A stretch of 64,000 nt of DNA from Escherichia phage EAWsc9. This document shows positions 20,317 to 60,835 of this stretch, piece by piece. Both the position numbers and the translations under genes were made by a program. The stretch is taken from sequence record PQ341120.1. One strand, written 5' to 3'. Each line of letters begins with the position of its first letter. Position 1 is the first letter of the stretch. The notes under the pieces were generated by a model. The model had not been told where the DNA came from, searched no databases, and saw nothing but the letters and a program-made list of their open reading frames with translations.

Positions 20317-20574
20317 TCATCTCATGCTCCTGTGCCAACAATTTCTTGGTTCACGTTTAAAAATTTCATCATGCATTGATTGACAACCAACACAATATAT
20401 CACACCTTTAATCGCTTGTCTCCGCGCTTCAGGAATTTTTTCGTCGCAGTCAAAACAGAATTCAGCAGACTCCCTTTCAACTGCAACTTGTGCTCGTGCG
20501 TGAACGATAGCGGCTTGGACAACCGCTTCCATCTCTAACTGTTCAGCACCATCTTTTGCAAATCCAACAGCCAT
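20317..20574 (-). CDS. TraR/DksA-family C4 zinc-finger protein
   Basis: 85 aa; CFDCDEKIPEARRQAIKGVIYCVGCQ = CxxC-x17-CxxC; TAATG coupling with upstream ORF. Confidence 0.55.
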   Translation of the reverse strand: MAVGFAKDGAEQLEMEAVVQAAIVHARAQVAVERESAEFCFDCDEKIPEARRQAIKGVIYCVGCQSMHDEIFKREPRNCWHRSMR

Positions 20575-20756
20575 TATTCTTTCAACTCATTCAGATAAGC
20601 AATTAATTCTTCTTTAGAACTATTCAAATCACGCTTGCACTGTTCTATTCCAGAATATGAATAACCTTCACAATATTCAACAGCCAGGTCATTGGATGCA
20701 TTTTCAATGTGCCAGGCGAGTTTGATAATTTTTTCAATCTGTTCAGTAGTTAACAT
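20574..20756 (-). CDS. hypothetical protein
   Basis: 60-aa minus ORF. Confidence 0.3.
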   Translation of the reverse strand: MLTTEQIEKIIKLAWHIENASNDLAVEYCEGYSYSGIEQCKRDLNSSKEELIAYLNELKE

Positions 20757-22323: not shown

Positions 22324-22896
22324 TCAGCTTGTTAATTCGAGCCAATGTTTTCTGCATAAAGATACGTACGATTCATTCCCACCGACTAACACTTGCTCGC
22401 CGTCCTTTACAGCAGCACCGTCGATTACTCTCGCGGTCATGGTTGCTTTCCGGCCGCAATGACAGACGCCCTTTAATTCAACCAGTTTATCCGAAATAGC
22501 CAGAAGTCTGGCTGAACCGGGAAATAATTGACCCCGAAAATCTGTTCTTAACCCGTAACACATAACGGGGATATTGTAATTATCAACCACTTGAGCTAAC
22601 TGGTCAATTTGCTCTGGTAACAAAAATTGAGCTTCATCGACCAGGACACAGTGGATATCCTTTTGAGACTCGGCCCATTTATAGAATTCAAACAGGTTCA
22701 TGTCGGCCGTTACCAGGTTTGCTTCCTGGCTAATACCAATACGTGATTTAATTTCAGATTCCGAGTCCCGATTATCAATAACAGGTTTTAGCAAAAGCAC
22801 GCTCATTCCACGCTCTTTATAGGAATAAGCTGCAGTCAGCAATGAAGCTGTTTTGCCTGCATTCATTGCTGCGTAATGATAAATTAAACTCGCCAT
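22324..22896 (-). CDS. tk: thymidine kinase
   Basis: 190 aa; P-loop NAGKTASLL, VDEAQF, and C-terminal CHCG...C zinc site typical of TK1-family kinases. Confidence 0.9.
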   Translation of the reverse strand: MASLIYHYAAMNAGKTASLLTAAYSYKERGMSVLLLKPVIDNRDSESEIKSRIGISQEANLVTADMNLFEFYKWAESQKDIHCVLVDEAQFLLPEQIDQLAQVVDNYNIPVMCYGLRTDFRGQLFPGSARLLAISDKLVELKGVCHCGRKATMTARVIDGAAVKDGEQVLVGGNESYVSLCRKHWLELTS

Positions 22897-28860: not shown

Positions 28861-29089
28861 CGTCACGTTTCCATGATTGGTTAAAAATATCACTCATTAA
28901 AAATTCAAGTCTATTTTCCAATGAAGGGCTTTCACTACTAGAAACTTGAACCATATAGTCAGCAATAGGTCGGAACATATCCAAGTCAGTTTCTAAATCA
29001 TCTTTGATTTTCTCTTCTGATGTACCTGTATCATAGGAATACAGATAAGAATCGCATGACTCAGATTTAATATAAATTGCAATACTCAT
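28853..29089 (-). CDS. hypothetical acidic protein
   Basis: 78-aa minus ORF. Confidence 0.3.
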   Translation of the reverse strand: MSIAIYIKSESCDSYLYSYDTGTSEEKIKDDLETDLDMFRPIADYMVQVSSSESPSLENRLEFLMSDIFNQSWKRDDE

Positions 29090-29673
29090 TTACGACATTC
29101 CTCAATAAAGGAGTTCAATGTATTTTTCTTAGTGATATCGTCATATACCTTTTTAACTTTAGAAATACGAAAAGGTACTTCAATAACCATAGTCCATAAA
29201 AATGATGCAATAAGCCCAGCGAGAGCAGTAGAAAAGCACGCACCCATTACAGCTACTGGTGCTTCATTTTTGCCTGTCAAGAAAAACCACAGGAATGGTA
29301 AAAATAAGATTCCAGCCCAGGCATAAAACCTGGAACAAATTAACTTATCAAATTCATCACTCCAGGTACGAAATCCATATTTCTTGCTATAAGAAATTAA
29401 TGGGTCGGGTGTCTGTTCTTTGAGCGGTTCTGGTTGATGCCCATTAATGATGTATCCCATTTTATATTCCTTAATTAAAAGCTCTTTCACATGACGATTG
29501 CATCGCGACCAATCAACATTTTCCACCTTGATTCCTTCATCACCATCATCAAGGTTCGCCCAATATTTTTTGGTAATCATAAATTCGTCTCTTGATACAA
29601 TTATACCTGCATTTTCTGCCCGGCGGATGAAGTTTACATCAACACCCATGCAGCCGGGTTCATAAAGGGCCAT
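29086..29673 (-). CDS. hypothetical membrane protein with C-terminal FIEECRK motif
   Basis: 195 aa; hydrophobic helices in the C-terminal half; ends ...TLNSFIEECRK. Confidence 0.4.
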   Translation of the reverse strand: MALYEPGCMGVDVNFIRRAENAGIIVSRDEFMITKKYWANLDDGDEGIKVENVDWSRCNRHVKELLIKEYKMGYIINGHQPEPLKEQTPDPLISYSKKYGFRTWSDEFDKLICSRFYAWAGILFLPFLWFFLTGKNEAPVAVMGACFSTALAGLIASFLWTMVIEVPFRISKVKKVYDDITKKNTLNSFIEECRK

Positions 29674-30365
29674 TACCAGCCCTCCATGGGGAATTCCAGA
29701 TATACTTGAGCATTAACGCGGATTTCATTGGTAACTTTATTAACACGGTCAGTTTTACGAGATACGCGACCAAACCAACGCCAACCGTTACTAACTGTTT
29801 TTGTTCCAGTATGCCATGTCTGCCAGTTGAATTCACATAATGTGCGGTCAGGAGCTTCTTGAACTAAAAGTTCACCTGCCTTGATTTTTTCCAGAACTTC
29901 CTGGTGCCACTGGCGATAGATAAGTTCGCCATCAGGAATCTGACTGAATTCTGCAGTTCCAAGAGCAAAATTAGTAGGGCAAACAGAAGCGTTAACCAGA
30001 CCCAGGATGTGTTCAGAATGGTAACGAGGGTTATCATAATCAGGTTGTCCTGCTGTAATAAAATGTTGTCCTGCTGGAATATCTGGACGTGGTACATCAT
30101 CATGGTGATACCCAGGGATAGCGGGATACCAACCAGGCATCAACATATGGACGCGAGAATCAAACACCAAATTATCAGGACCATCAGTCCATTCTTTTGG
30201 TAGGTTATCAAGAAAACTGCGCGTGATTGGGCCACCATGCTTATGCGCAAATTCTGGATAGCAGTTAAAGAACATAGGCTCATTTTTGATTTGGTCATTA
30301 CTGATATCTTGAGCAAATTGACCAACTTCACGCATTTGACTATTAAAAGTTTTTGAACTATTCAT
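29673..30365 (-). CDS. hypothetical protein, His-rich
   Basis: 230 aa; several His/Asp clusters (YHHDD, HSEH) that could bind metal; fold not assigned. Confidence 0.4.
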   Translation of the reverse strand: MNSSKTFNSQMREVGQFAQDISNDQIKNEPMFFNCYPEFAHKHGGPITRSFLDNLPKEWTDGPDNLVFDSRVHMLMPGWYPAIPGYHHDDVPRPDIPAGQHFITAGQPDYDNPRYHSEHILGLVNASVCPTNFALGTAEFSQIPDGELIYRQWHQEVLEKIKAGELLVQEAPDRTLCEFNWQTWHTGTKTVSNGWRWFGRVSRKTDRVNKVTNEIRVNAQVYLEFPMEGW

Positions 30366-30424: not shown

Positions 30425-31384
30425 TTATTTTTCGAAAGGACGAATTAAATGTTGGTTAGCTTTGAAACGTTTAACATAGTCTTCGTGCCCCAGGGTGTTG
30501 TACATATTAACCACTTCCTGATAATGTTCCCAAGCATACTCGCGGAACCATCCAGAAGTAATGGAGGTGCAGACTTTTTCCAGAGCAATATGGAAGCTCA
30601 CGGATGGAGAGATATTGAACTCATTGGGAACCTGCGAACGCTCCAGAGCGAGTACACATGCTTCTTCATAAACCCCTGCCAGTTTAATAATCTCAGGGAG
30701 TGCTTCAAATTTTTCACGCGAGGTCATAACTTCTGAATCATCCTTCATATAGAACTTATATGCAGGCTTATCAGCAAGCGCCACAGCCTCGTGGATGGAG
30801 TCATGGTCAAGGGTATAGATTGTATCATTAAAGAAAGTTTTCTTGCCCACGTCTAGTTTAGGGTGACTATATGACAATGTTTCTGCCTGGCGCTGCAGCA
30901 TGATTTTATGCAGTTCGTCATTAAGAACAACACCCTTATTGCGAAGGTAATTAATATGACTCATTGTCTTCAGGAAGAATGGATTGTTCTTCAGGTAACG
31001 ATGAGACAGTTTAATTGCCAGACAAATATCAGGAGTCGCCCAATAGAAACCTGTAAGACGGTCTTTCTTAATATGATTTTCAGCGTATTTCAAGAGACGA
31101 TAACTTGAGGTGAAATCTTCATCTTGAAGCTCACCAGTAATTTCTCGTACGTTAGTCAGGGCACGGACAATATAAGCTTCAAAATAGGTTTCTTTTCCAT
31201 TGTACATACATTTAAAAGCTTGGACATCAGGGTTATCCACAGGAACATGAGCACCGAACATACGTGCTTTAAAGTGGTTCCAGGAGCCCTGGTCAGCGAT
31301 AAAGTCCCAATCAGAGTTTTCAATTTTCTGACTTTCAATCAGACCAGCGTTATGTAATGCACGAGAACCAATAACTAACATCAT
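30425..31384 (-). CDS. hypothetical protein with possible nucleotidyltransferase-like N-terminus
   Basis: 319 aa; N-terminal IGSRAL...x17...SDWDF loosely resembles a GS...DxD nucleotidyltransferase signature; weak. Confidence 0.4.
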   Translation of the reverse strand: MMLVIGSRALHNAGLIESQKIENSDWDFIADQGSWNHFKARMFGAHVPVDNPDVQAFKCMYNGKETYFEAYIVRALTNVREITGELQDEDFTSSYRLLKYAENHIKKDRLTGFYWATPDICLAIKLSHRYLKNNPFFLKTMSHINYLRNKGVVLNDELHKIMLQRQAETLSYSHPKLDVGKKTFFNDTIYTLDHDSIHEAVALADKPAYKFYMKDDSEVMTSREKFEALPEIIKLAGVYEEACVLALERSQVPNEFNISPSVSFHIALEKVCTSITSGWFREYAWEHYQEVVNMYNTLGHEDYVKRFKANQHLIRPFEK

Positions 31385-31840: not shown

Positions 31841-32170
31841 TTAGACTTGTATACTGCTTCTACAATATTCTAAAAATAATTTATCGTTGTTTACCTTATC
31901 CCAACGACGCCAAGATGGATTCCAGACCAGAGCGTTGTCACCGCAATCATTGAGCTTAAAGTGGTCGTAGTACATAGCTATATGTCTGGTTTCGTCACCA
32001 GAGAACCCCAGTATATGCTCACCGTGGGTATGATACATATGATGATGCATTGAGAGGTCGCATTTGTAAAACATCTCACGTTTACCACGAACGAACAAGA
32101 AGGCTTGCTCATTCATATAGAATTCTTTATCTGTTTTCAAAAGATATTTGAATACCGAATCTTTATGCAT
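31841..32170 (-). CDS. hypothetical His-rich protein
   Basis: ATG at 32170 behind AGGAGG gives 109 aa; SMHHHMYHTHGEH cluster. Confidence 0.35.
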   Translation of the reverse strand: MHKDSVFKYLLKTDKEFYMNEQAFLFVRGKREMFYKCDLSMHHHMYHTHGEHILGFSGDETRHIAMYYDHFKLNDCGDNALVWNPSWRRWDKVNNDKLFLEYCRSSIQV

Positions 32171-32200: not shown

Positions 32201-32428
32201 TTATTTTCCTAACGAAATACGAGTAGGTTTTTTACCGAAATATTCTTCATAGGAACCATCTAAACGACCCGCTTTAGACCGACAATACGAATCATACTTT
32301 TTGTAATAAGTCAACTCGTTATTATAACGTGGATGTCTATCAGCCATAATAATACTTAATGGCCAACCTTTGGCATAATCACGAAGACCATTTATTTTAC
32401 GAATATATCTTTTCTTTAATTTTAGCAT
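32201..32428 (-). CDS. hypothetical basic protein
   Basis: 75-aa minus ORF. Confidence 0.3.
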   Translation of the reverse strand: MLKLKKRYIRKINGLRDYAKGWPLSIIMADRHPRYNNELTYYKKYDSYCRSKAGRLDGSYEEYFGKKPTRISLGK

Positions 32429-32646
32429 GAGCTCGGGTACCAGATTTTACCGTCGGCGCGGGCAACGAAGGTACGACCAGCTTCTTCGCCGTAACAAGAG
32501 CTATTCAGCCAATCTTCAAGACGAACTTCACCGTCATAATCATCTAGCTCAACACCAAAATCCTGAGCAGAAGCCATATCTTTTACTTTCTTATACAGGG
32601 CAGCCAGTTCAAGAGCAGCTTTTTCTAATTCGTTAATATCAGTCAT
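32422..32646 (-). CDS. small protein, C-terminal W-Y-P-S-S-C tail family member D
   Basis: 74 aa; TAAGGAA RBS; ends ...GKIWYPSSC. Confidence 0.45.
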   Translation of the reverse strand: MTDINELEKAALELAALYKKVKDMASAQDFGVELDDYDGEVRLEDWLNSSCYGEEAGRTFVARADGKIWYPSSC

Positions 32647-32656
32647 TTTTTATTCC

Positions 32657-32854
32657 TTAGCATTCGTAAGAGGAGGACACCCAAGAGGTACCACTAATTG
32701 TAATACAACCATTATAAAGCGTGATATGTCGTTCTAAGTCACGAACACCATCAATGTAGATATCAGCTTCTTCGCGTTCTTCTTTACAAATCTGGATAAC
32801 ATTTTCAATAGCTGCCGCGGCAGTACGGATTGCACAATCTAATTCACGAGACAT
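32657..32854 (-). CDS. small protein, C-terminal W-V-S-S-S-x-x-C tail family member C
   Basis: ATG at 32854 behind AAGGAA gives 65 aa; ends ...SGTSWVSSSYEC. Confidence 0.45.
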   Translation of the reverse strand: MSRELDCAIRTAAAAIENVIQICKEEREEADIYIDGVRDLERHITLYNGCITISGTSWVSSSYEC

Positions 32855-32862
32855 AACATTCC

Positions 32863-33144
32863 TTAACATTCAGCAGAAGAGGACACCCAACCACCATTTT
32901 CCAGGTCAGTTGTATAGTCATGAGTATTAACAATAGCCCATTCAGGATGACCATGTTCTTCCCAATGAGCAAGGTCAGCTTTCAGGGCGCCAGGAGAATA
33001 ATAGTCACCGCCCATACCGCGAGCAGGGTATATATTAAAATGAGTCTCATATTTGTCTGCAATTTCCTCGGCACGACGAATAGCTTTATGGATGTCATTT
33101 ACTGCGTTAGCCAGTTCTTTATTTTTACGGTAATCATTCATCAT
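32863..33144 (-). CDS. small protein, C-terminal W-V-S-S-S-x-x-C tail family member B
   Basis: 93 aa; ends ...NGGWVSSSAEC; shares EEIADKY segment with member A. Confidence 0.45.
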   Translation of the reverse strand: MMNDYRKNKELANAVNDIHKAIRRAEEIADKYETHFNIYPARGMGGDYYSPGALKADLAHWEEHGHPEWAIVNTHDYTTDLENGGWVSSSAEC

Positions 33145-33153
33145 AACGTTTCC

Positions 33154-33444
33154 TTAGCACATTGCCGAAGAGGAGACCCAAGCACCAACTGTAACGACAC
33201 CGTTTTCAACTTCACCGCCGTTGTTTTCAATTTCATCTTTAAACCACTGGGAGCACTCATAACCGACAGGATAATATGTACGGCCTGAACCATAATCACC
33301 GGTACCGAATTGGATACCATATTCATCTGCGATTTCTTCACAGTGTTTTTCAATTTCAGAGGTCTTATTTAGAAGAGAATAGATGGCTTTTTCTGCAGAT
33401 TTCTCATCATAATACTTGGGGATAGCAATTTCAATTTTATTCAT
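33154..33444 (-). CDS. small protein, C-terminal W-V-S-S-S-x-x-C tail family member A
   Basis: 96 aa; ends ...VGAWVSSSAMC; AAGGAA RBS. Confidence 0.45.
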   Translation of the reverse strand: MNKIEIAIPKYYDEKSAEKAIYSLLNKTSEIEKHCEEIADEYGIQFGTGDYGSGRTYYPVGYECSQWFKDEIENNGGEVENGVVTVGAWVSSSAMC

Positions 33445-33794
33445 GATTTACATTCCTTAATAAAGGTTTCAAGGTCATTACGTTTTGTTTTGTCTAGGAA
33501 CTTATTATACTCAGCCATTGCTGAAGCATATCTCTTCCGACTAGGAGCATTCACGGCGTTTGTGTGACAAATATCATACACAACCGGGATAAAATAAGCC
33601 ACAACAGCCGGAGCGATTATCATAAAGAAACCCATCTCAATGGGCATGACTCCCTCGATTGCAGCCATAACCGTGGTCATTACCAGACCAACCAAACCAC
33701 CGAGCATACCGGTGACAATTCCCAATAATAAATTGCCGCCAATATCATATTCAGCCAATTGATAAACATGTGATGCAAGACTAGGCCGTTCCAT
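33441..33794 (-). CDS. hypothetical membrane protein with C-terminal FIKECKS motif
   Basis: ATG at 33794 behind AAGGAGG gives 117 aa; two hydrophobic helices; ends ...LETFIKECKS. Confidence 0.4.
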   Translation of the reverse strand: MERPSLASHVYQLAEYDIGGNLLLGIVTGMLGGLVGLVMTTVMAAIEGVMPIEMGFFMIIAPAVVAYFIPVVYDICHTNAVNAPSRKRYASAMAEYNKFLDKTKRNDLETFIKECKS

Positions 33795-34140
33795 TACGAA
33801 CCTCCTTAATAAATTCTTCGGCACATTTAATTTTGTGCTCTTCTTGTAGGGAAACACATTTTTGTTCCCACTCTTTAACTCGCCCACGATATCCTTTATT
33901 CATATGATTTTGATGCCACACATTTATCAATATCATACTCAGGACCGTAATAAAAGGAGCTGCGATTATTAGCGCCCAGGCAACTCCAACACTAATGATA
34001 TCCATATCCCCGCAAAGCACCATCATTATAACCCCAACGATGCACATGGACAAAGCTCCAAATGGAGGCATAAGGTCTTTATCAATCTTGTCTGCGTATA
34101 CAAATTTTTCTGGTTTACTTGGCAGATATAGCGTTCGCAT
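33781..34140 (-). CDS. hypothetical membrane protein with C-terminal FIKEV motif
   Basis: track ORF 33781..34176; start MRTLYLP at 34140 preferred; hydrophobic helices; ...CAEEFIKEVRNGTA. Confidence 0.35.
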   Translation of the reverse strand: MRTLYLPSKPEKFVYADKIDKDLMPPFGALSMCIVGVIMMVLCGDMDIISVGVAWALIIAAPFITVLSMILINVWHQNHMNKGYRGRVKEWEQKCVSLQEEHKIKCAEEFIKEVRNGTA

Positions 34141-34687
34141 TTTGAACCCCTTTAGCATATTCACGACATTCAGCAATAAAACGATTAAGCTTACGTTTCC
34201 GTTTACGACCCTCTAATGTGTACTCAGCCGCCAAATCAAGAAGCTCATCTTTATCATAATTTTTAATATCAGTATAAGTTGGGCGGCGGTCAACCATTCC
34301 AAAGTGGTCACCATTTTCCAACATCAAATAACACACCAAATGGTCATCATCGTCCGCATTAATAAGCTGCTTATAATCACTTGGTTCATTTAACGCATAC
34401 ACAGAATAACTCAGCCCAGCGAATTCCACTCGTTGAATACCCAGATTTACGTCAATAATTTCCAAGGCATCTGCAAAAGAAAGGTCTTCAGCTAAAGCAA
34501 AAATAAAAGGCAATTTGGTAGTATCGCCGCGACTTGTTGTTCTTCTTAAGAAATCATTGGAATAACCCAAGTCGCGGCGGATTCTATAAAGAACTGTGTT
34601 AGTTTCAGTGGCAAGACCACTACCGCCAAACCATTCCACATTTGATAAAAGATTATCATATAAAGTCATAATTTTCTCCTCTCCCAA
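34115..34687 (-). CDS. hypothetical protein with C-terminal FIAECREY motif
   Basis: 190 aa; ends ...KLNRFIAECREYAKGVQNANAISAK. Confidence 0.4.
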   Translation of the reverse strand: MGEEKIMTLYDNLLSNVEWFGGSGLATETNTVLYRIRRDLGYSNDFLRRTTSRGDTTKLPFIFALAEDLSFADALEIIDVNLGIQRVEFAGLSYSVYALNEPSDYKQLINADDDDHLVCYLMLENGDHFGMVDRRPTYTDIKNYDKDELLDLAAEYTLEGRKRKRKLNRFIAECREYAKGVQNANAISAK

Positions 34688-34711
34688 TTAGGGGGCTTTG
34701 CCCCCTTTATC

Positions 34712-35305
34712 TTACTTAAGTGAATTGATGTATTCTTCAATGTCAGCGGACGTGGTATCCACACCAACCTGTGGACCTTTGAAGGTTTCAACACGCATCA
34801 AGGTGTCTTCAATATCAATCTTAGTCAATGCAGCGATTTCAACAACATCATCTGCAGTCGCAATACCCAGGGCAGATACCTTACGGGTTTCGCGGATGTA
34901 TTCCAGTTTAACAGCTAGTTCCTGACGAGAATCATCCAGCTCTTTAACTTTCAATTTAATTTCATTACGCATTTCAACATAATCGTCTGCCTTCTTACGA
35001 AGTTGTTTAGCAGTGCGACGATACAGGAGACCCAGTTTAGCATGGACCTGGACATCCGCACCATCAGCAATCAGTTTGCGGATTTCACGCTCTTTTGAGG
35101 CGGCAAGTTGGTCTTTTTCATTCGCTAACTCGCGGATGCGTTTTTCTTCATTAACAGACTTAACGTGGGCGGTCTGGAGCTCAGTAATCTTGTCAATCAG
35201 GGTAGACGCCGCTTGAGTATATTGGTCTTCAATAGACAGGTTTTTTGCCATTGCAGTACCCAGTTTGGAGCGGATGAATTCAACAAGTTTCTTTAAAGTA
35301 TTCAT
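34712..35305 (-). CDS. coiled-coil protein, possibly PspA/IM30-like
   Basis: 197 aa, long charged heptad-rich helices; similarity to PspA judged by eye only. Confidence 0.35.
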
Positions 35306-35377
35306 GGTATTTCCTTCAGTTGGTTAATGTTTTATTATCCAGGGAACATACTATCATGTTCCCATTAAAGCACTAAT

Positions 35378-35683
35378 TTAGATTTTGTTTTCCTGCACAC
35401 CATAATAAAGTTCATCAGACACAATATCCAGGATGCGGCGAACATATTCATCATGGTATTGGCAGTCAAAATCAAATGCAACAGTAGTTTCCGCTTCACG
35501 AGTGAATTTAACTTGCACATTCAGGTGATTAACAACGTTAGTTAATTTATCAGTAAAGAACTCTTTTGCTACCGCCTGTTGGACTTGCACTTTAAACTTG
35601 GTGTTGCGAATCATATTTTCAGCAGATGCGAAATTACCAGTTTTATCAAAGTCAACAAGCGCCAGGTTGATGATGAATTTCAT
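35378..35683 (-). CDS. hypothetical protein
   Basis: 101 aa; ATG at 35683 behind CACTGGAGAATAAA leader cassette. Confidence 0.35.
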   Translation of the reverse strand: MKFIINLALVDFDKTGNFASAENMIRNTKFKVQVQQAVAKEFFTDKLTNVVNHLNVQVKFTREAETTVAFDFDCQYHDEYVRRILDIVSDELYYGVQENKI

Positions 35684-35724: not shown

Positions 35725-35754
35725 ATTATGCCTTAAAGCAGGGGGCTTGTATAC
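35725..35754 (-). promoter_or_regulatory. early sigma70-type promoter (-35 GTATACA, 17 bp, -10 CATAAT) with conserved leader
   Basis: plus attatg 35725-35730 and tgtatac 35748-35754; -35 in loop of GGGGG/CCCCC hairpin. Confidence 0.45.
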
Positions 35755-35766
35755 CCCCTTTTTGAA

Positions 35767-36234
35767 TTAAATTTCAAATTCTTTGCGGAAGTTGGAAGCA
35801 TAAGACTGAACTGATGCTTTGTTGAATCCAAACTCACGCACAATCATATCAATAACAGCTCTGCGAGCAGCACCATTAGACATATTAACAGTTTTGAACA
35901 TATCATAGCATAAATCTTTGTTGCTCATACCGGAGCGTTTAGGTGCCTTACGTTCAGCTTTTGGTTCAGCTTTTGGTTCAGCTTTTGGTTCAGCTTTAGG
36001 AGTAGGTTTAACTTCTGGTTTAACCTGTCCATCATTCAGACCTTTAAAAATTTTACCTGCCAGAGTTGCCAGTTTAGCAGCTTCGCCACGAGTGATACCA
36101 AATACTGCCGGGTTAAATGAAATACCTTCAGCTGCCAGACGTTTGAAGAACATACGTGCTGCGGATTGTGCTTCAGCTTCAGAAGAGTTGTTTAATGCCA
36201 GCTTAACGTACTTAACCAGTTTTGAAGTTTTCAT
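35767..36234 (-). CDS. hypothetical protein with (PKAE)4 tandem repeat and conserved C-terminal domain
   Basis: 155 aa; PKAEPKAEPKAEPKAE encoded by 12-nt direct repeats; C-terminal DGAARRAVID...VQSYASNFRK shared with ORF 36317..36742. Confidence 0.45.
   Translation of the reverse strand: MKTSKLVKYVKLALNNSSEAEAQSAARMFFKRLAAEGISFNPAVFGITRGEAAKLATLAGKIFKGLNDGQVKPEVKPTPKAEPKAEPKAEPKAERKAPKRSGMSNKDLCYDMFKTVNMSNGAARRAVIDMIVREFGFNKASVQSYASNFRKEFEI
35953..36000 (-). repeat. four tandem copies of a 12-nt coding repeat (plus-strand ttcagcttttgg)
   Basis: direct repeats read directly from sequence; encode P-K-A-E on the minus strand. Confidence 0.8.
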
Positions 36235-36316: not shown

Positions 36317-36742
36317 TTATTTTTGAGCTTTGCGGAAGTTGGAAGCATATGACTGAACAACAGTCTTTTTGATATCATAGGTGTTAACCAGAACATCAAT
36401 CAGGGCGCGGCGAGCTGCACCATCTGCCATATCAATTTCTGCAAATGCCTGGAAGCAAATGTCACGAGCATTACCAGATTTGGACTGGATTTTTTCTTCT
36501 TTAACTTCTTCAATTGGGAATTCAATCATTTCAGCTTGGATTAATTCAATGATAGATTCTTTTGACTGTTTGGTGTTTACCTTCAGTTCAGAATTAAGGG
36601 ACTTAGCGATGGCAACAATCTGGGTTGAAGTCAGATGAATAAGTGCATCTTCACGAATGCAGATTTCACATACTTCGTCGGCAACCATTTTGTTAGTGAT
36701 GCGGGTAACAGAGAATGCAGAAGTCAGGGTCAGGAAGTTCAT
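36317..36742 (-). CDS. hypothetical protein, paralog of 35767..36234 C-terminal domain
   Basis: ATG at 36742 behind TTTGGAGAAATAAA gives 141 aa; C-terminus DGAARRALIDVLVNTYDIKKTVVQSYASNFRK. Confidence 0.45.
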   Translation of the reverse strand: MNFLTLTSAFSVTRITNKMVADEVCEICIREDALIHLTSTQIVAIAKSLNSELKVNTKQSKESIIELIQAEMIEFPIEEVKEEKIQSKSGNARDICFQAFAEIDMADGAARRALIDVLVNTYDIKKTVVQSYASNFRKAQK

Positions 36743-36793
36743 TTTATTTCTCCAAAGTTTTGTTTGATTCAGTGTGTAACTCAGTATGGAATC

Positions 36794-36823
36794 ATTATGC
36801 ATCCAGTCAATTCGGATGTACAC
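36794..36823 (-). promoter_or_regulatory. early sigma70-type promoter with conserved leader
   Basis: plus attatg 36794-36799 and tgtacac 36817-36823, 17-bp spacer. Confidence 0.45.
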
Positions 36824-57651: not shown

Positions 57652-59201
57652 TGACAACGACTAACACGCTAAAACACATTAGCGATAAATCCGAATATAA
57701 AACATTCGACCCGACGGGAACAGCTTTCCCGTCGACTGTTACCAACGTGCAAGAGGCTTTAGGGTCTCTTAATAAAATTGCGTTAGATGGATATATCCCA
57801 GCCTCATCCGAAACGACCGCAGGACTCATCAGGCTAGCCACCACACAAGAAGTTATTGATGGTATTAGTCCAGACTCTGCTGTCACCCCAGCGACCTTAA
57901 AAGCTCGTTTAGACATTCCTACGCAAGCTACAGAAACTTATGTAGGTATTACCCGTTATGCAACCAATGCCGAAGCAATTGCCGGGACAGTAACCGATGC
58001 AGCTATTGTTCCATCTTCATTAAAAGCAACAATTGATAATGTTTTTACTGTTCGTGTTGGTACTGAAAATAACCTGGGTGTTCTTCGTATTAGTACCGAG
58101 GATGCAGCTTTAGCTGGCACAGATGACACAACCGCTATGTCTCCGTTGAAAGTTGCTCTGGCAATTGGCAAAGCAACAGCGGCGCTTCCAACTTATTCAA
58201 CTGCCACACAAACTGTTTCTGGTTTAGTACGAATTGCTACAAATGCTGAAGTGCAAGCAGGAACCCTGGGTGACGGTGTAGCAATTTCTCCAGCAGGTTT
58301 AAATGCTCGTACAGCAACACAAGACCGCGCTGGGATTATTCGTCTTGGTAATCAGTCAGAGATTAATAACAGTGCTGATGGTGTTGCGGTAACTGGCGCA
58401 ACTCTTAATGGTCGTGGAGCCACAACCGATAATCGCGGCGTCGTTAGATTAACTACTCAGGCTGGGGTTGCTCCTGGTGGTGATGGTGCCGGTGCACTGG
58501 CTTGGAATGCTGATGTAATCAACACTCGCGGTGGTCAACGAATTAATGGAAGTCTTTCTTTAGATTATATTTCCACCGGCAATTTTGATTCCAATACAGC
58601 TCATATGGGCGGTCAATTACTTTCTACACAGCGTTATGCTTCTGAACGGGTTCCGGTTGGAACGGTGATGATGTTCGCAGGTGATAGTGCTCCTCCTGGC
58701 TGGATTATGTGTCACGGCGGCACCGTTAATGGTGACCAATTCCCTGACTATCGAAATACTGTTGGAACTCGTTTCGGTGGCGATTGGACCAACGTCGGTA
58801 TTCCTGATATGCGTGGTTTGTTTGTTCGTGGTGCTGGTACCGGTGGACATATTCTGAATAACCGCGGTCAAGATGGTTATGGCAAAGACCGTTTGGGTGT
58901 TGGTTGTGATGGTTCATGGGTCGGTGGTGTACAAGCTCAGCAAATGTCATATCATAAACACGCGGGTGGTTGGGGTGAATACCAACGTAACGAAGCTCCA
59001 TTTGGTGCATCAGTTTATCAAGGTTATCTGGGTACAAGAAAATATGCAGACTGGGATAACGCTTCATATTTTACTAACGATGGATTTGAACTCGGTGGCG
59101 GCAGAGATGCTTTAGGTACGTTAAACCGTGAAGGTCTTATTGGTTATGAAACTCGCCCATGGAATATGTCTTTAAACTATATTATCAAAATTCATTACTA
59201 A
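57651..59201 (+). CDS. 12: gp12 short tail fibre
   Basis: 516 aa; repeat-rich N-terminal region and C-terminal receptor-binding region with WIMCHGG and HKHAGG segments. Confidence 0.9.
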   Translation: MTTTNTLKHISDKSEYKTFDPTGTAFPSTVTNVQEALGSLNKIALDGYIPASSETTAGLIRLATTQEVIDGISPDSAVTPATLKARLDIPTQATETYVGITRYATNAEAIAGTVTDAAIVPSSLKATIDNVFTVRVGTENNLGVLRISTEDAALAGTDDTTAMSPLKVALAIGKATAALPTYSTATQTVSGLVRIATNAEVQAGTLGDGVAISPAGLNARTATQDRAGIIRLGNQSEINNSADGVAVTGATLNGRGATTDNRGVVRLTTQAGVAPGGDGAGALAWNADVINTRGGQRINGSLSLDYISTGNFDSNTAHMGGQLLSTQRYASERVPVGTVMMFAGDSAPPGWIMCHGGTVNGDQFPDYRNTVGTRFGGDWTNVGIPDMRGLFVRGAGTGGHILNNRGQDGYGKDRLGVGCDGSWVGGVQAQQMSYHKHAGGWGEYQRNEAPFGASVYQGYLGTRKYADWDNASYFTNDGFELGGGRDALGTLNREGLIGYETRPWNMSLNYIIKIHY

Positions 59202-59209
59202 GGACCAAA

Positions 59210-60835
59210 ATGATTAATAAACTCAGTCTCAAAGAACTGCCGTATAGCATCGGTATTCCAGACGAAGGTCAACAGAGAATTCGTTGGATACAAAACGGCG
59301 ATTGTATGACTGCGGCCAGTACCAAATATGGTCATGATGGTAATTTGAACGCCGCTGCAGTTGGCGTTCAAACAAACGTAGATACACTCGACGACAACTC
59401 AAATGCATCTAAAGAAAAAATAAACGAAATTATTGATAACGTCAATAATATTCAGGAAGCTTTGAATATAACAACTAACACGGAAGTTGTTAAACAAATT
59501 GAAAAAAACCGTACGGATATTCTTGACCTTGATGAACGTCAATTTAATACCGAATTGTTATCAAGCGAAACATCTGAAGACCTTAAAAAGTTAAAAGAAG
59601 ATGTTGGTGTTTATGACCCGTTAACCGATTCATATTATCGCACAGTTCGTAATGACCTCGTATGGATTAAAAATGAATTAGGCCAGTATGTCGACCAAGA
59701 TATAAATGGTCTCCAGGTTATCGGCAATCCGTCAAAAGGCATGAAACGCCGCATCATCGATAACAGTTCGGCTATTGTTGCCCATGGAGTTCGTATTAAG
59801 ACTCTTGAAGATAACTATCATGATTCTGATGTTGGTTCTCTTAACGTAAAAGTAATTAAAATTCGTGAAGAATTAGGTGAGTCTACTTTAGCAACAGGTA
59901 AACCGGCTGTATTTGTTCGACTGAATACTCTTGATGGTAAAGCAGTTGAAATTGACGAAGATATTGCCAACATTCAAGAAGCTATTGGTTTTGGTACCGG
60001 ACTTGCAATTACAACTCGCGTTGAAAATCTTGGTGGACGTGTTTCGGTCAATGAAACAGATATTGCGAATATCAAACCAAGACTTGCTAAGGTTGAAGCT
60101 GATATCGGCACCGCTCTGGAACCGTTAACAATTAATGGTCGAATCAGTGCTTTGCGCTCGGATGTTAATGGCTTACAGGTTGTTGTTGGTCAGGATTCAA
60201 GCTCTGGTTTACGCGGAACCACTGCATGGCTTTCTCAGAGAATCGGTACAGAGCAATCTCCGGAGCCAAACACTATCACGTATAAGTTGAATGCGACCAC
60301 TACACTGGCTAACGAAACTGCATCAGGCCTTCAGGATGTACAGGCCGAAATCGGTACAAATAACACTGGTATGAAAGGCTCTATTTTGACTTTAACTAGC
60401 CAGATGAATGGTACAAACCCTAACGGTGCTACCGTGGCTGAACGTGGTGTTCTTCCGGTTGTAATTAACTTGGATATGCTGATGGCGTCCAAGCTGAACG
60501 ACGCACCATTGGACAATAAGTTATATGGTCGCAAGCAAGGAAACTGGACTGAAATTATCGATACCAAAACCGAGATTGATGCAATTAAACTCGATACTGC
60601 AAAAATTGCACCATTAACCACTCGCGTGACAACCCTTGAAGGTACAGTAACTCCGCTCCCTGGTCGCCTGGATGCGGCTGAGGCGAAGATAACTACTTTA
60701 GAAGGTAAAGTATCAGCCTTAGAAACAGAGCTCGCCAAAAGGCCTCCTGTCGCTCCTGCAGCTGATGGTCTCCCTTATGTGCTCGTTGATAACGCATGGG
60801 TTCTTTTGTCTACATTTGTGACTGTTGGACCATAA
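59210..60835 (+). CDS. wac: fibritin (whisker) Wac
   Basis: ATG at 59210 behind AAGGA gives 541 aa; N-terminal LPYSIGIPDEGQQRIRWIQNGD and foldon-like C-terminus ...VLVDNAWVLLSTFV match T4 fibritin from memory. Confidence 0.88.
   Translation: MINKLSLKELPYSIGIPDEGQQRIRWIQNGDCMTAASTKYGHDGNLNAAAVGVQTNVDTLDDNSNASKEKINEIIDNVNNIQEALNITTNTEVVKQIEKNRTDILDLDERQFNTELLSSETSEDLKKLKEDVGVYDPLTDSYYRTVRNDLVWIKNELGQYVDQDINGLQVIGNPSKGMKRRIIDNSSAIVAHGVRIKTLEDNYHDSDVGSLNVKVIKIREELGESTLATGKPAVFVRLNTLDGKAVEIDEDIANIQEAIGFGTGLAITTRVENLGGRVSVNETDIANIKPRLAKVEADIGTALEPLTINGRISALRSDVNGLQVVVGQDSSSGLRGTTAWLSQRIGTEQSPEPNTITYKLNATTTLANETASGLQDVQAEIGTNNTGMKGSILTLTSQMNGTNPNGATVAERGVLPVVINLDMLMASKLNDAPLDNKLYGRKQGNWTEIIDTKTEIDAIKLDTAKIAPLTTRVTTLEGTVTPLPGRLDAAEAKITTLEGKVSALETELAKRPPVAPAADGLPYVLVDNAWVLLSTFVTVGP

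Follow-up and report, generated by a model that had tools for sequence, protein, structure and literature searches.

PspA of Escherichia coli and Yersinia, with PspB and PspC, and LiaH of Bacillus, with LiaI, each combine an ESCRT-III-like effector with adjoining small membrane anchors, and ESCRT-III proteins have autoinhibitory and regulatory C-terminal helices. C-terminal peptides that dock onto a hub are known from T4, where gp43, gp33, gp55 and RNase H bind the sliding clamp by their tails, and from the C-terminal tail of SSB. Here we describe a short conserved tail at or near the C-terminus of proteins from the e cluster (genes e.2 to e.6) of T4-like phages, using a 64,000-nucleotide stretch of Escherichia phage EAWsc9 (PQ341120.1; hereafter the window), and compare this locus with the systems above, taking the PspA/Vipp1-ESCRT-III superfamily as defined in PMC8281802.

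The module formed by e.6 and the tail genes resembles PspA-PspB/PspC and LiaH-LiaI in what would be a functional sense only. A predicted helical hairpin of about 200 residues, e.6, is encoded directly upstream of small inner-membrane proteins with predicted cytoplasmic parts that might recruit it, and the membrane-protein neighbours of e.6 are kept even in Ackermannviridae. However, e.6 has no profile match to PspA_IM30 or Snf7, e.2, e.3 and e.4 have no Pfam match, PspB and PspC included, the module is carried by a lytic phage, and soluble proteins bear the tail too. None of PspB, PspC and LiaI is known to carry anything like the F-[IV]-x-x-C-R tail.

The likeness to hub-docking peptides lies in the tail itself: the same short motif, conserved at the protein level, stands at or near the C-terminus of non-homologous proteins of one genome, which implies a common binding site. 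The e-cluster tail differs in its sequence, in that its carriers are mostly membrane proteins, and in that the partner here is a candidate only. A further likeness, to the regulatory C-terminal helices of ESCRT-III, is that the e.6 model has a short C-terminal helix after a disordered linker, with the same residue pattern as the tails; purely by inference, this helix and the tails might compete for one groove. Finally, e-cluster proteins resemble T4 RI, RIII, holin T, Imm and Sp as small early proteins at or near the inner membrane, and the C-terminal helices of RIII, RI.1 and MobD.3 are loosely similar to the tail, but RI, RIII, holin T, Imm and Sp show no sequence similarity to e-cluster proteins, lack the strict motif and are encoded at other genome positions.

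A C-terminal tail in the e cluster

By sequence identity the window is from a T4-like phage of the genus Gaprivervirus: its region 28800-35400 matches Escherichia phage ECML-359 at 96% and Shigella phage SP18 at 94% identity. From the annotation of relatives and of T4, four of the tail genes are orthologues of T4 e.2, e.3, e.4 and e.5, all on the minus strand; e.2 to e.6 show homology to the T4 genes and keep the T4 gene order in the interval from nudE to the tRNA region.

34712-35305, minus strand: e.6 orthologue, 197 residues, a conserved helical protein (phrog_1203), directly upstream of the tail genes and a candidate partner
34115-34669, minus strand: e.5 orthologue, 184 residues, soluble (phrog_8788 and a profile-profile match)
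33781-34140, minus strand: e.4 orthologue, 119 residues, two transmembrane helices (phrog_2604, with a weak cross-hit to the e.3 family; 31% identity to T4 e.4 by BLAST)
33441-33794, minus strand: e.3 orthologue, 117 residues, two transmembrane helices (phrog_2330; BLAST E 8e-8 to T4 e.3 and 2e-10 to RB69 e.3)
31841-32170, minus strand: fifth tail-bearing gene, 109 residues, soluble and His/Cys-rich (phrog_9796)
29086-29673, minus strand: e.2 orthologue, 195 residues, a soluble N-domain followed by two transmembrane helices and the tail (phrog_2203; N-domain 53% identical to T4 e.2 by BLAST)

For e.5, the listing of open reading frames (ORFs) gives a TTG start at 34687; the ATG at 34669, preceded by GGAGAGGAG, has the better ribosome-binding site and is probably the real start. 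An earlier note on this DNA had reported four ORFs with related tails (33441-33794, 33781-34140, 34115-34687 and 29086-29673), three of them with clear hydrophobic helices. All four read as described on the minus strand, and the three are e.2, e.3 and e.4, with two helices each; the family as listed therefore holds, with the fifth member at 31841-32170 having been missed. The tails of the five are as follows.

34163-34189, minus strand: e.5 tail LNRFIAECR, followed by EYAKGVQNANAISAK, which overlaps the e.4 start
33796-33822, minus strand: e.4 tail AEEFIKEVR, a Val-for-Cys variant; the protein ends in EEFIKEVRNGTA
33444-33473, minus strand: e.3 tail LETFIKECKS
31859-31885, minus strand: fifth-member tail DKLFLEYCR, with Leu at +1 and the hydrophobic residue at -1 rather than -3; the protein ends in KLFLEYCRSSIQV
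29089-29118, minus strand: e.2 tail LNSFIEECRK

The consensus is [LIV]-E-x-[FWY]-[IV]-x-x-C-R-[KG], located 0-25 residues from the C-terminus. In a non-redundant set of 38 tails, position 0 is Phe in 33, Trp in three and Tyr in two, position +1 is Ile in 26 and Val in 12, position +4 is Cys, and position +5 is Arg in 32 and Lys in four. Conservation extends beyond the search pattern, with Leu, Ile, Val or Phe at -3 in 36 of the 38, Glu at -2 in 17 and Lys, Gly or Arg at +6. The hydrophobic residues at -3, 0, +1 and +4 (i, i+3, i+4, i+7) share one helix face, beside a basic residue. The F-I-x-E-[CV] core of the earlier note reflects a real feature, but the true core is F-[IV]-x-x-C-R with a hydrophobic residue at -3.

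The tail is kept in the orthologues of T4, RB69, Klebsiella, Serratia, Enterobacter, Aeromonas, Providencia and Citrobacter phages, and the first of the two refuting conditions set in the earlier note thus does not hold. In T4, e.3 ends in KEFVIDCRKIK, e.4 in KFVKESRCKSQS and e.5 in EKFVKECREYVKAITIPSK; the e.4 tails read FVKESRC in T4, FVKEIRC in RB69 and FIKEVRRK in Klebsiella, and the fifth member keeps the form LFLEYCRS[SGD][IV]Q[VL] in relatives. A survey of the genes downstream of e.6 in eight further genera, represented by RB69, Klebsiella Roth34, Serratia X20, Aeromonas phiAS4 and CC2, Enterobacter UFV01, Providencia PSTRCR_127 and Citrobacter CfP1, reveals many different proteins that end in [FWY]-[IV]-x-x-C-[RK].

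We find that the motif is far in excess of chance. In a set of 121 genes from the window, three products carry FIxE[CV] in their last 25 residues (four with e.4, which dropped out of this greedily chosen set) against 0.036 expected (0.036-0.078 over the motif statistics as a whole), and none of 1000 residue shuffles reaches the observed tail count, so the motif clears the comparison with shuffled proteins that the earlier note had named. A six-frame scan of the window finds the pattern five times, four of them in the reported tails. In the whole T4 genome, scanned in six frames (1262 ORFs of at least 30 residues), [FYW][IV]xxC[RK] occurs four times, always at most 11 residues from the C-terminus: in e.3, in e.5, in an unannotated remnant of e.2 described below and in thymidine kinase. 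The last was rejected as a member, since its YVSLCRKHW is part of the conserved zinc site of the kinase and hence a coincidence, found also in the window at 22324-22896. Short ORFs bearing the pattern (35365-35520 in the window and a 30-residue ORF) were judged spurious and left out as well.

Database searches agree with this restricted distribution. An exact scan of IMG/VR for FIKEC[RS]K followed by a stop gives in-frame terminal matches in T4-like phages only, and a HMMER profile built from e.3, e.4 and the C-terminal half of e.2 finds eight proteins, all phage-like, among 1.84 billion representatives, the new ones ending in FIKECKS, FIDDCKNWR and FIREVRNAKTR. No non-phage member appeared in that search, the divergence within the family being too great for HMMER. 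We take it as shown that the motif is real, that it is confined to the e cluster and that selection acts on it as protein. A relaxed pattern, [LIVMF]xx[FYW][ILV]xx[CLIVM][RK] near the C-terminus, is present in seven T4 genes versus 1.1 expected, namely the e.2 remnant, e.3, e.5, e.6, MobD.3, RI.1 and RIII. The endings of RIII (a cytoplasmic antiholin), RI.1 and MobD.3 could reflect chance or a looser class of terminal helix. Outside the e cluster the relaxed pattern lies in T4 rIII (130785-131033), rI.1 (59508-59720) and mobD.3 (58155-58349), and in the window at 20574-20756.

Selection on the protein follows from the codons: the conserved positions use all six Arg codons, both Cys codons and both Phe codons, in addition to the Trp and Tyr alternatives. 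The middle of the motif, where the Glu of the earlier note's core falls, is under a further constraint. In the window, the +2 and +3 codons read AAGGAG in e.4, AAGGAA in e.3 and GAGGAA in e.2 and lie about 8-9 nucleotides before the overlapping start of the next gene, a position that makes them its Shine-Dalgarno site; the codons for K-E-V in the e.4 tail (AAGGAGGTT), for example, are the Shine-Dalgarno site of e.3. Shine-Dalgarno-like purine triplets occur at +2/+3 in 11 of 20 tails that end within three residues versus two of 16 longer ones (p = 0.014), and the K-E or E-E middle is in part a nucleotide effect. Consistent with translational coupling, e.5 and e.4 overlap by 26 nucleotides and e.4 and e.3 by 14, the e.3 stop overlaps the start of the 33154-33444 gene (ATGA), and the e.2 stop likewise overlaps the 28853-29089 gene. 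Judged from these sequences, the variable middle of the motif is dual-coded and the conserved frame of F, I/V, C and R is not, an example in which the variable part of a protein motif serves as the ribosome-binding site of the next gene.

Carriers of the tail and the adjoining gene e.6

The membrane-bound carriers share one predicted topology. In e.2, e.3 and e.4, two hydrophobic helices are joined by a loop of 5-9 residues with zero or one Lys or Arg, and the segment after the second helix holds 8-9 Lys and Arg residues; by the positive-inside rule, both ends of the helix pair and the tail are predicted to be cytoplasmic, in line with the cytoplasmic tail of the earlier note. That note had called the membrane proteins "otherwise different", which does not stand, as PHROG cross-hits, BLAST and alignment identify the C-terminal half of e.2, e.3 and e.4 as distant homologues that each consist of two helices and the tail.

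e.5 is another matter. BLAST had suggested that the e.5 proteins of the window and of T4 share the tail alone, a view that we rejected on profile comparison: against a profile of the T4, RB69, Klebsiella and Serratia e.5 proteins, the window protein aligns over 165 columns (probability 94.8%, E 5e-8), revealing homology over the full length and identifying it as a fast-evolving orthologue. Judged among 27 homologues, the tail is its best-conserved segment, and positions +2 and +3 vary within the genus. Matches to the e.5 profiles over 9-25 tail columns only are given by the two-helix membrane proteins, the fifth member (ORF 31841), Klebsiella 10886 and Providencia 9991, and likewise by the phiAS4 and CfP1 proteins in the e.5 position. 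On these sequence comparisons, the tail occurs on several bodies without detectable mutual homology (those of the e.5 family, of the membrane proteins with two helices and of several small soluble proteins), for which a shared docking function is the simplest reading. The AlphaFold2 model of e.5 is too poor for a fold search (predicted local distance difference test, pLDDT, 45.6), with residues 152-183 helical and the best-scoring part; the tail is predicted to be a cytoplasmic helix. Pfam and NCBIfam return no match for the tail-bearing proteins, nor for the T4 and RB69 counterparts of e.2, e.3 and e.4.

The annotated e.2 of T4 (102 residues) is the N-terminal half of the gene only. An unannotated 51-residue ORF on the minus strand of T4 (NC_000866, 67472-67627), 43% identical to residues 159-195 of the window e.2 and ending in FITECRKLK, is the C-terminal remnant of the split gene. 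Intact e.2 versions of 162 residues are present in other T4-like contigs.

e.6 stands in a fixed relation to these carriers. At about 45 distinct loci from more than 10 genera, spanning e.6 identities from 100% down to 30%, the next gene after e.6 bears the tail, 5-25 residues from the end of its product; in three exceptions the same gene is split by a frameshift and the tail is in the second ORF. The order of e.6 followed by a tail gene is thus invariant in the T4-like phages checked, all at loci that bear e.6. Tail genes number from one per genome (phiAS4, 44RR-like phages, CfP1) to six, with 2-6 in most. e.6 itself is found in 1110-1186 phage records, in various of which it is auto-annotated as "host specificity protein" or "tail completion protein".

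The AlphaFold2 model of e.6 (pLDDT 74.5) begins with a helix at 2-22, continues in a hairpin formed by helices 25-80 and 86-145 and, beyond a disordered linker, closes with a confidently modelled helix at 186-196, a layout matching the long hairpin after an N-terminal amphipathic helix that is the hallmark of PspA/IM30/Vipp1-ESCRT-III proteins; the hairpin is modelled with pLDDT above 80 and the N-terminal helix with only about 40. Foldseek against the Protein Data Bank places six Vipp1 entries at the top, followed by archaeal CdvB2, all weakly (E 5e-3 to 3e-2), and in the search of viral models the hits with a name that rank next below the e.6 homologues are one Snf7-family and one PspA/IM30 protein. 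At the sequence level, Pfam searches with 30 e.6 homologues at E values up to 10 yield no match to PF04012 (PspA_IM30) or Snf7, and hhalign of e.6 with E. coli PspA aligns 26 residues at a probability of 3.6%; membership of e.6 in the PspA family is therefore not claimed. As a lead drawn from the models, we consider it about equally likely that e.6 is PspA/ESCRT-III-like and that it is not. The last residues of e.6 (34715-34747) carry the tail pattern with Tyr, Leu and Lys in place of Phe, Cys and Arg; the general form, [VIL]-x-[ED]-Y-[IL]-x-S-L-K, has Leu where the tails have Cys and is modelled with high confidence. Literature searches by gene name and accession number return no description of the tail motif and none of e.6 as PspA-like.

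Other features of the window

Between e.2 and the array of small genes, the minus strand encodes two larger conserved proteins, one of 230 residues with no family match (29673-30365) and one of 319 residues with DUF7277 and DUF7275 domains (30425-31384). The array itself holds a second family with a C-terminal motif, four tandem small soluble proteins that end exactly in G-x-W-V-S-S-S-x-x-C or W-Y-P-S-S-C (phrog_899, no known function).

32422-32646, minus strand: second-family protein
32657-32869, minus strand: second-family protein
32863-33144, minus strand: second-family protein
33154-33444, minus strand: second-family protein

Two to five such genes are present in RB69, X20, phiAS4, UFV01, CC2 and several IMG/VR phages; T4, Roth34, the Providencia phage and CfP1 have none. 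Farther along, G+C-rich hairpins (GGGGGC-AAA-GCCCCC and similar) occupy intergenic gaps at 34690-34706, after e.6, and at 35740-35759, after the 35767-36234 gene; they score as terminator-like on the plus strand only, and the genes are on the minus strand. The products of 35767-36234 and 36317-36823, both on the minus strand, have a common C-terminal domain (containing GAARRA-x-ID and, farther on, VQSYASNFRK), and the former also has a KAEPKAEPKAEPKAE repeat.

Interpretation and significance

We tentatively favour the explanation that the tail is a docking helix that ties its carriers to one partner, probably e.6. The tail would be a short cytoplasmic amphipathic helix acting as a portable docking peptide, through which a changing set of early proteins may be joined to a common partner: the two-helix inner-membrane proteins (e.2, e.3, e.4 and relatives), the e.5 family, which is soluble, and a few other soluble proteins of small size. 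Among possible partners the product of e.6, with its predicted helical hairpin and N-terminal amphipathic helix, would be the most likely, and the invariant gene order, the membrane-scaffold-like predicted fold and the look-alike terminal helix together make it the leading candidate. The membrane-bound tail proteins would then anchor or nucleate e.6 at the inner membrane, as PspB and PspC do for PspA and LiaI does for LiaH, and e.5 would use the same handle. We infer each of the three steps involved, that the tail binds, that e.6 is what it binds and that e.6 acts like PspA. As for the common partner proposed in the earlier note, protein-level conservation and the presence of the tail on non-homologous bodies speak for it, with shared docking being the simplest reading rather than a demonstrated one.

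Several observations weigh against this explanation. The e.4 group and a Klebsiella/Serratia/Enterobacter group have Val, Ser, Ile or Met at the Cys position, so that the seemingly invariant Cys is dispensable in some members. Ackermannviridae carry e.6 homologues (25-29% identity) followed by genes without the tail, encoding a protein of 185-192 residues with an N-terminal membrane helix and a tiny membrane protein; the tail is thus not needed for e.6 function in general, and membrane-protein neighbours are kept along with e.6, whereas the tail is an invention of the T4-like lineage. A possible covariation of e.6 with the tail, in which the CC2-like phages, whose tails lack the Arg, have D124N in e.6, was rejected, as the neighbouring positions vary widely and a single lineage is concerned. 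A CRISPRi-ART screen in T4 scores e.2 to e.6 as "Not Fit" (no fitness effect under laboratory conditions) and lists their function as unknown (PMC11879866, supplement).

The motif evidence would fit any single partner, and the tails may instead dock onto a conserved gamma-proteobacterial host protein, such as a protease, a chaperone or a division or secretion factor, with the link to e.6 arising from shared regulation or co-inheritance. Hosts that span Escherichia to Aeromonas and Providencia make a conserved target plausible, and in Ackermannviridae e.6 works without tail partners; we nonetheless consider a host partner unlikely, because it leaves unexplained why a tail gene stays beside e.6 where the rest of the cluster is gone (phiAS4, 44RR-like phages, CfP1), and we know of no host-binding peptide that the tail resembles. 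The tails could also bind each other, perhaps through a metal or disulfide bridge between Cys residues, to assemble e.2 to e.5 into one membrane complex. Most genomes do carry 2-6 tail genes, each tail has one amphipathic face with one Cys, and e.6 ends in a look-alike helix, but some phages have a single tail gene, members with Val, Ile, Met or Ser for Cys exist, and the cytoplasm is reducing, all of which makes such bundling quite improbable.

The extreme C-terminal position, typical of degrons, and the early, non-essential character of the carriers are what would be predicted of a turnover or timing signal, a C-terminal degron or stabiliser recognised by a protease of the host or of the phage. 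In the e.5 family, however, the motif is conserved even though 5-25 residues separate it from the C-terminus, the hydrophobic face with Cys-Arg looks more like a groove-fitting helix, and the tail is not known to resemble any degron, leaving this explanation with little chance of being correct. We give slightly less credence to the motif as a by-product, with no function of its own, of nucleotide constraints, whether from the overlapping next gene (its ribosome-binding site or start) or from a recombination junction, or of simple paralogy. The +2 and +3 codons do double as Shine-Dalgarno sites in the window, the enrichment of such triplets in short tails points the same way, and the C-terminal half of e.2, e.3 and e.4 are paralogues. 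Against this, the conserved positions (F, I/V, C, R and -3) are distinct from the Shine-Dalgarno positions, with which the variable ones overlap exactly, all six Arg codons are used, and the tail is kept where there is no overlap with a ribosome-binding site (the e.5 family) and on non-homologous bodies. A nucleotide-level origin of the core positions is largely excluded.

The roles suggested in the earlier note have gained no ground. For superinfection exclusion and lysis timing, BLASTP of e.2 to e.5 and ORF 31841 against T4 Imm, Sp, RI, RI.1, RIII, T, Ac and the spanins gives nothing below E 0.1. For anti-defence we find no supporting evidence, with no Pfam or NCBIfam match in a search that did not include PADLOC.

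A docking helix that binds e.6 admits a bolder extension, which we regard as unlikely but worth stating, that T4-like phages carry an ESCRT-III/PspA-like system of their own. e.6 would be the polymerising effector, with e.2 to e.5 and their relatives as adaptors and cargo, and the tail, mimicking the C-terminal helix of e.6, would displace a contact that is autoinhibitory and thereby let e.6 assemble at the inner membrane in the course of infection. Such a system might, e.g., keep the membrane energised in lysis inhibition or under abortive-infection attack. The principle of a shared C-terminal docking peptide, possibly combined with a Psp-like effector and membrane adaptors, is known; the motif, its carriers and the phage setting are, to our knowledge, new.

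Genes e.2 to e.6 are an unexplained part of the best-studied phage. The motif joins at least five e-cluster genes to each other and to e.6, a strongly conserved gene, turning them into one testable module whose handle is a nine-residue peptide with four key residues and whose candidate hub is e.6. If e.6 acts like PspA or Vipp1, the module would amount to a system for membrane maintenance that a virus encodes together with an adaptor code of its own, and this, if true, would bear on the way in which the host membrane is kept functional by large lytic phages up to lysis.

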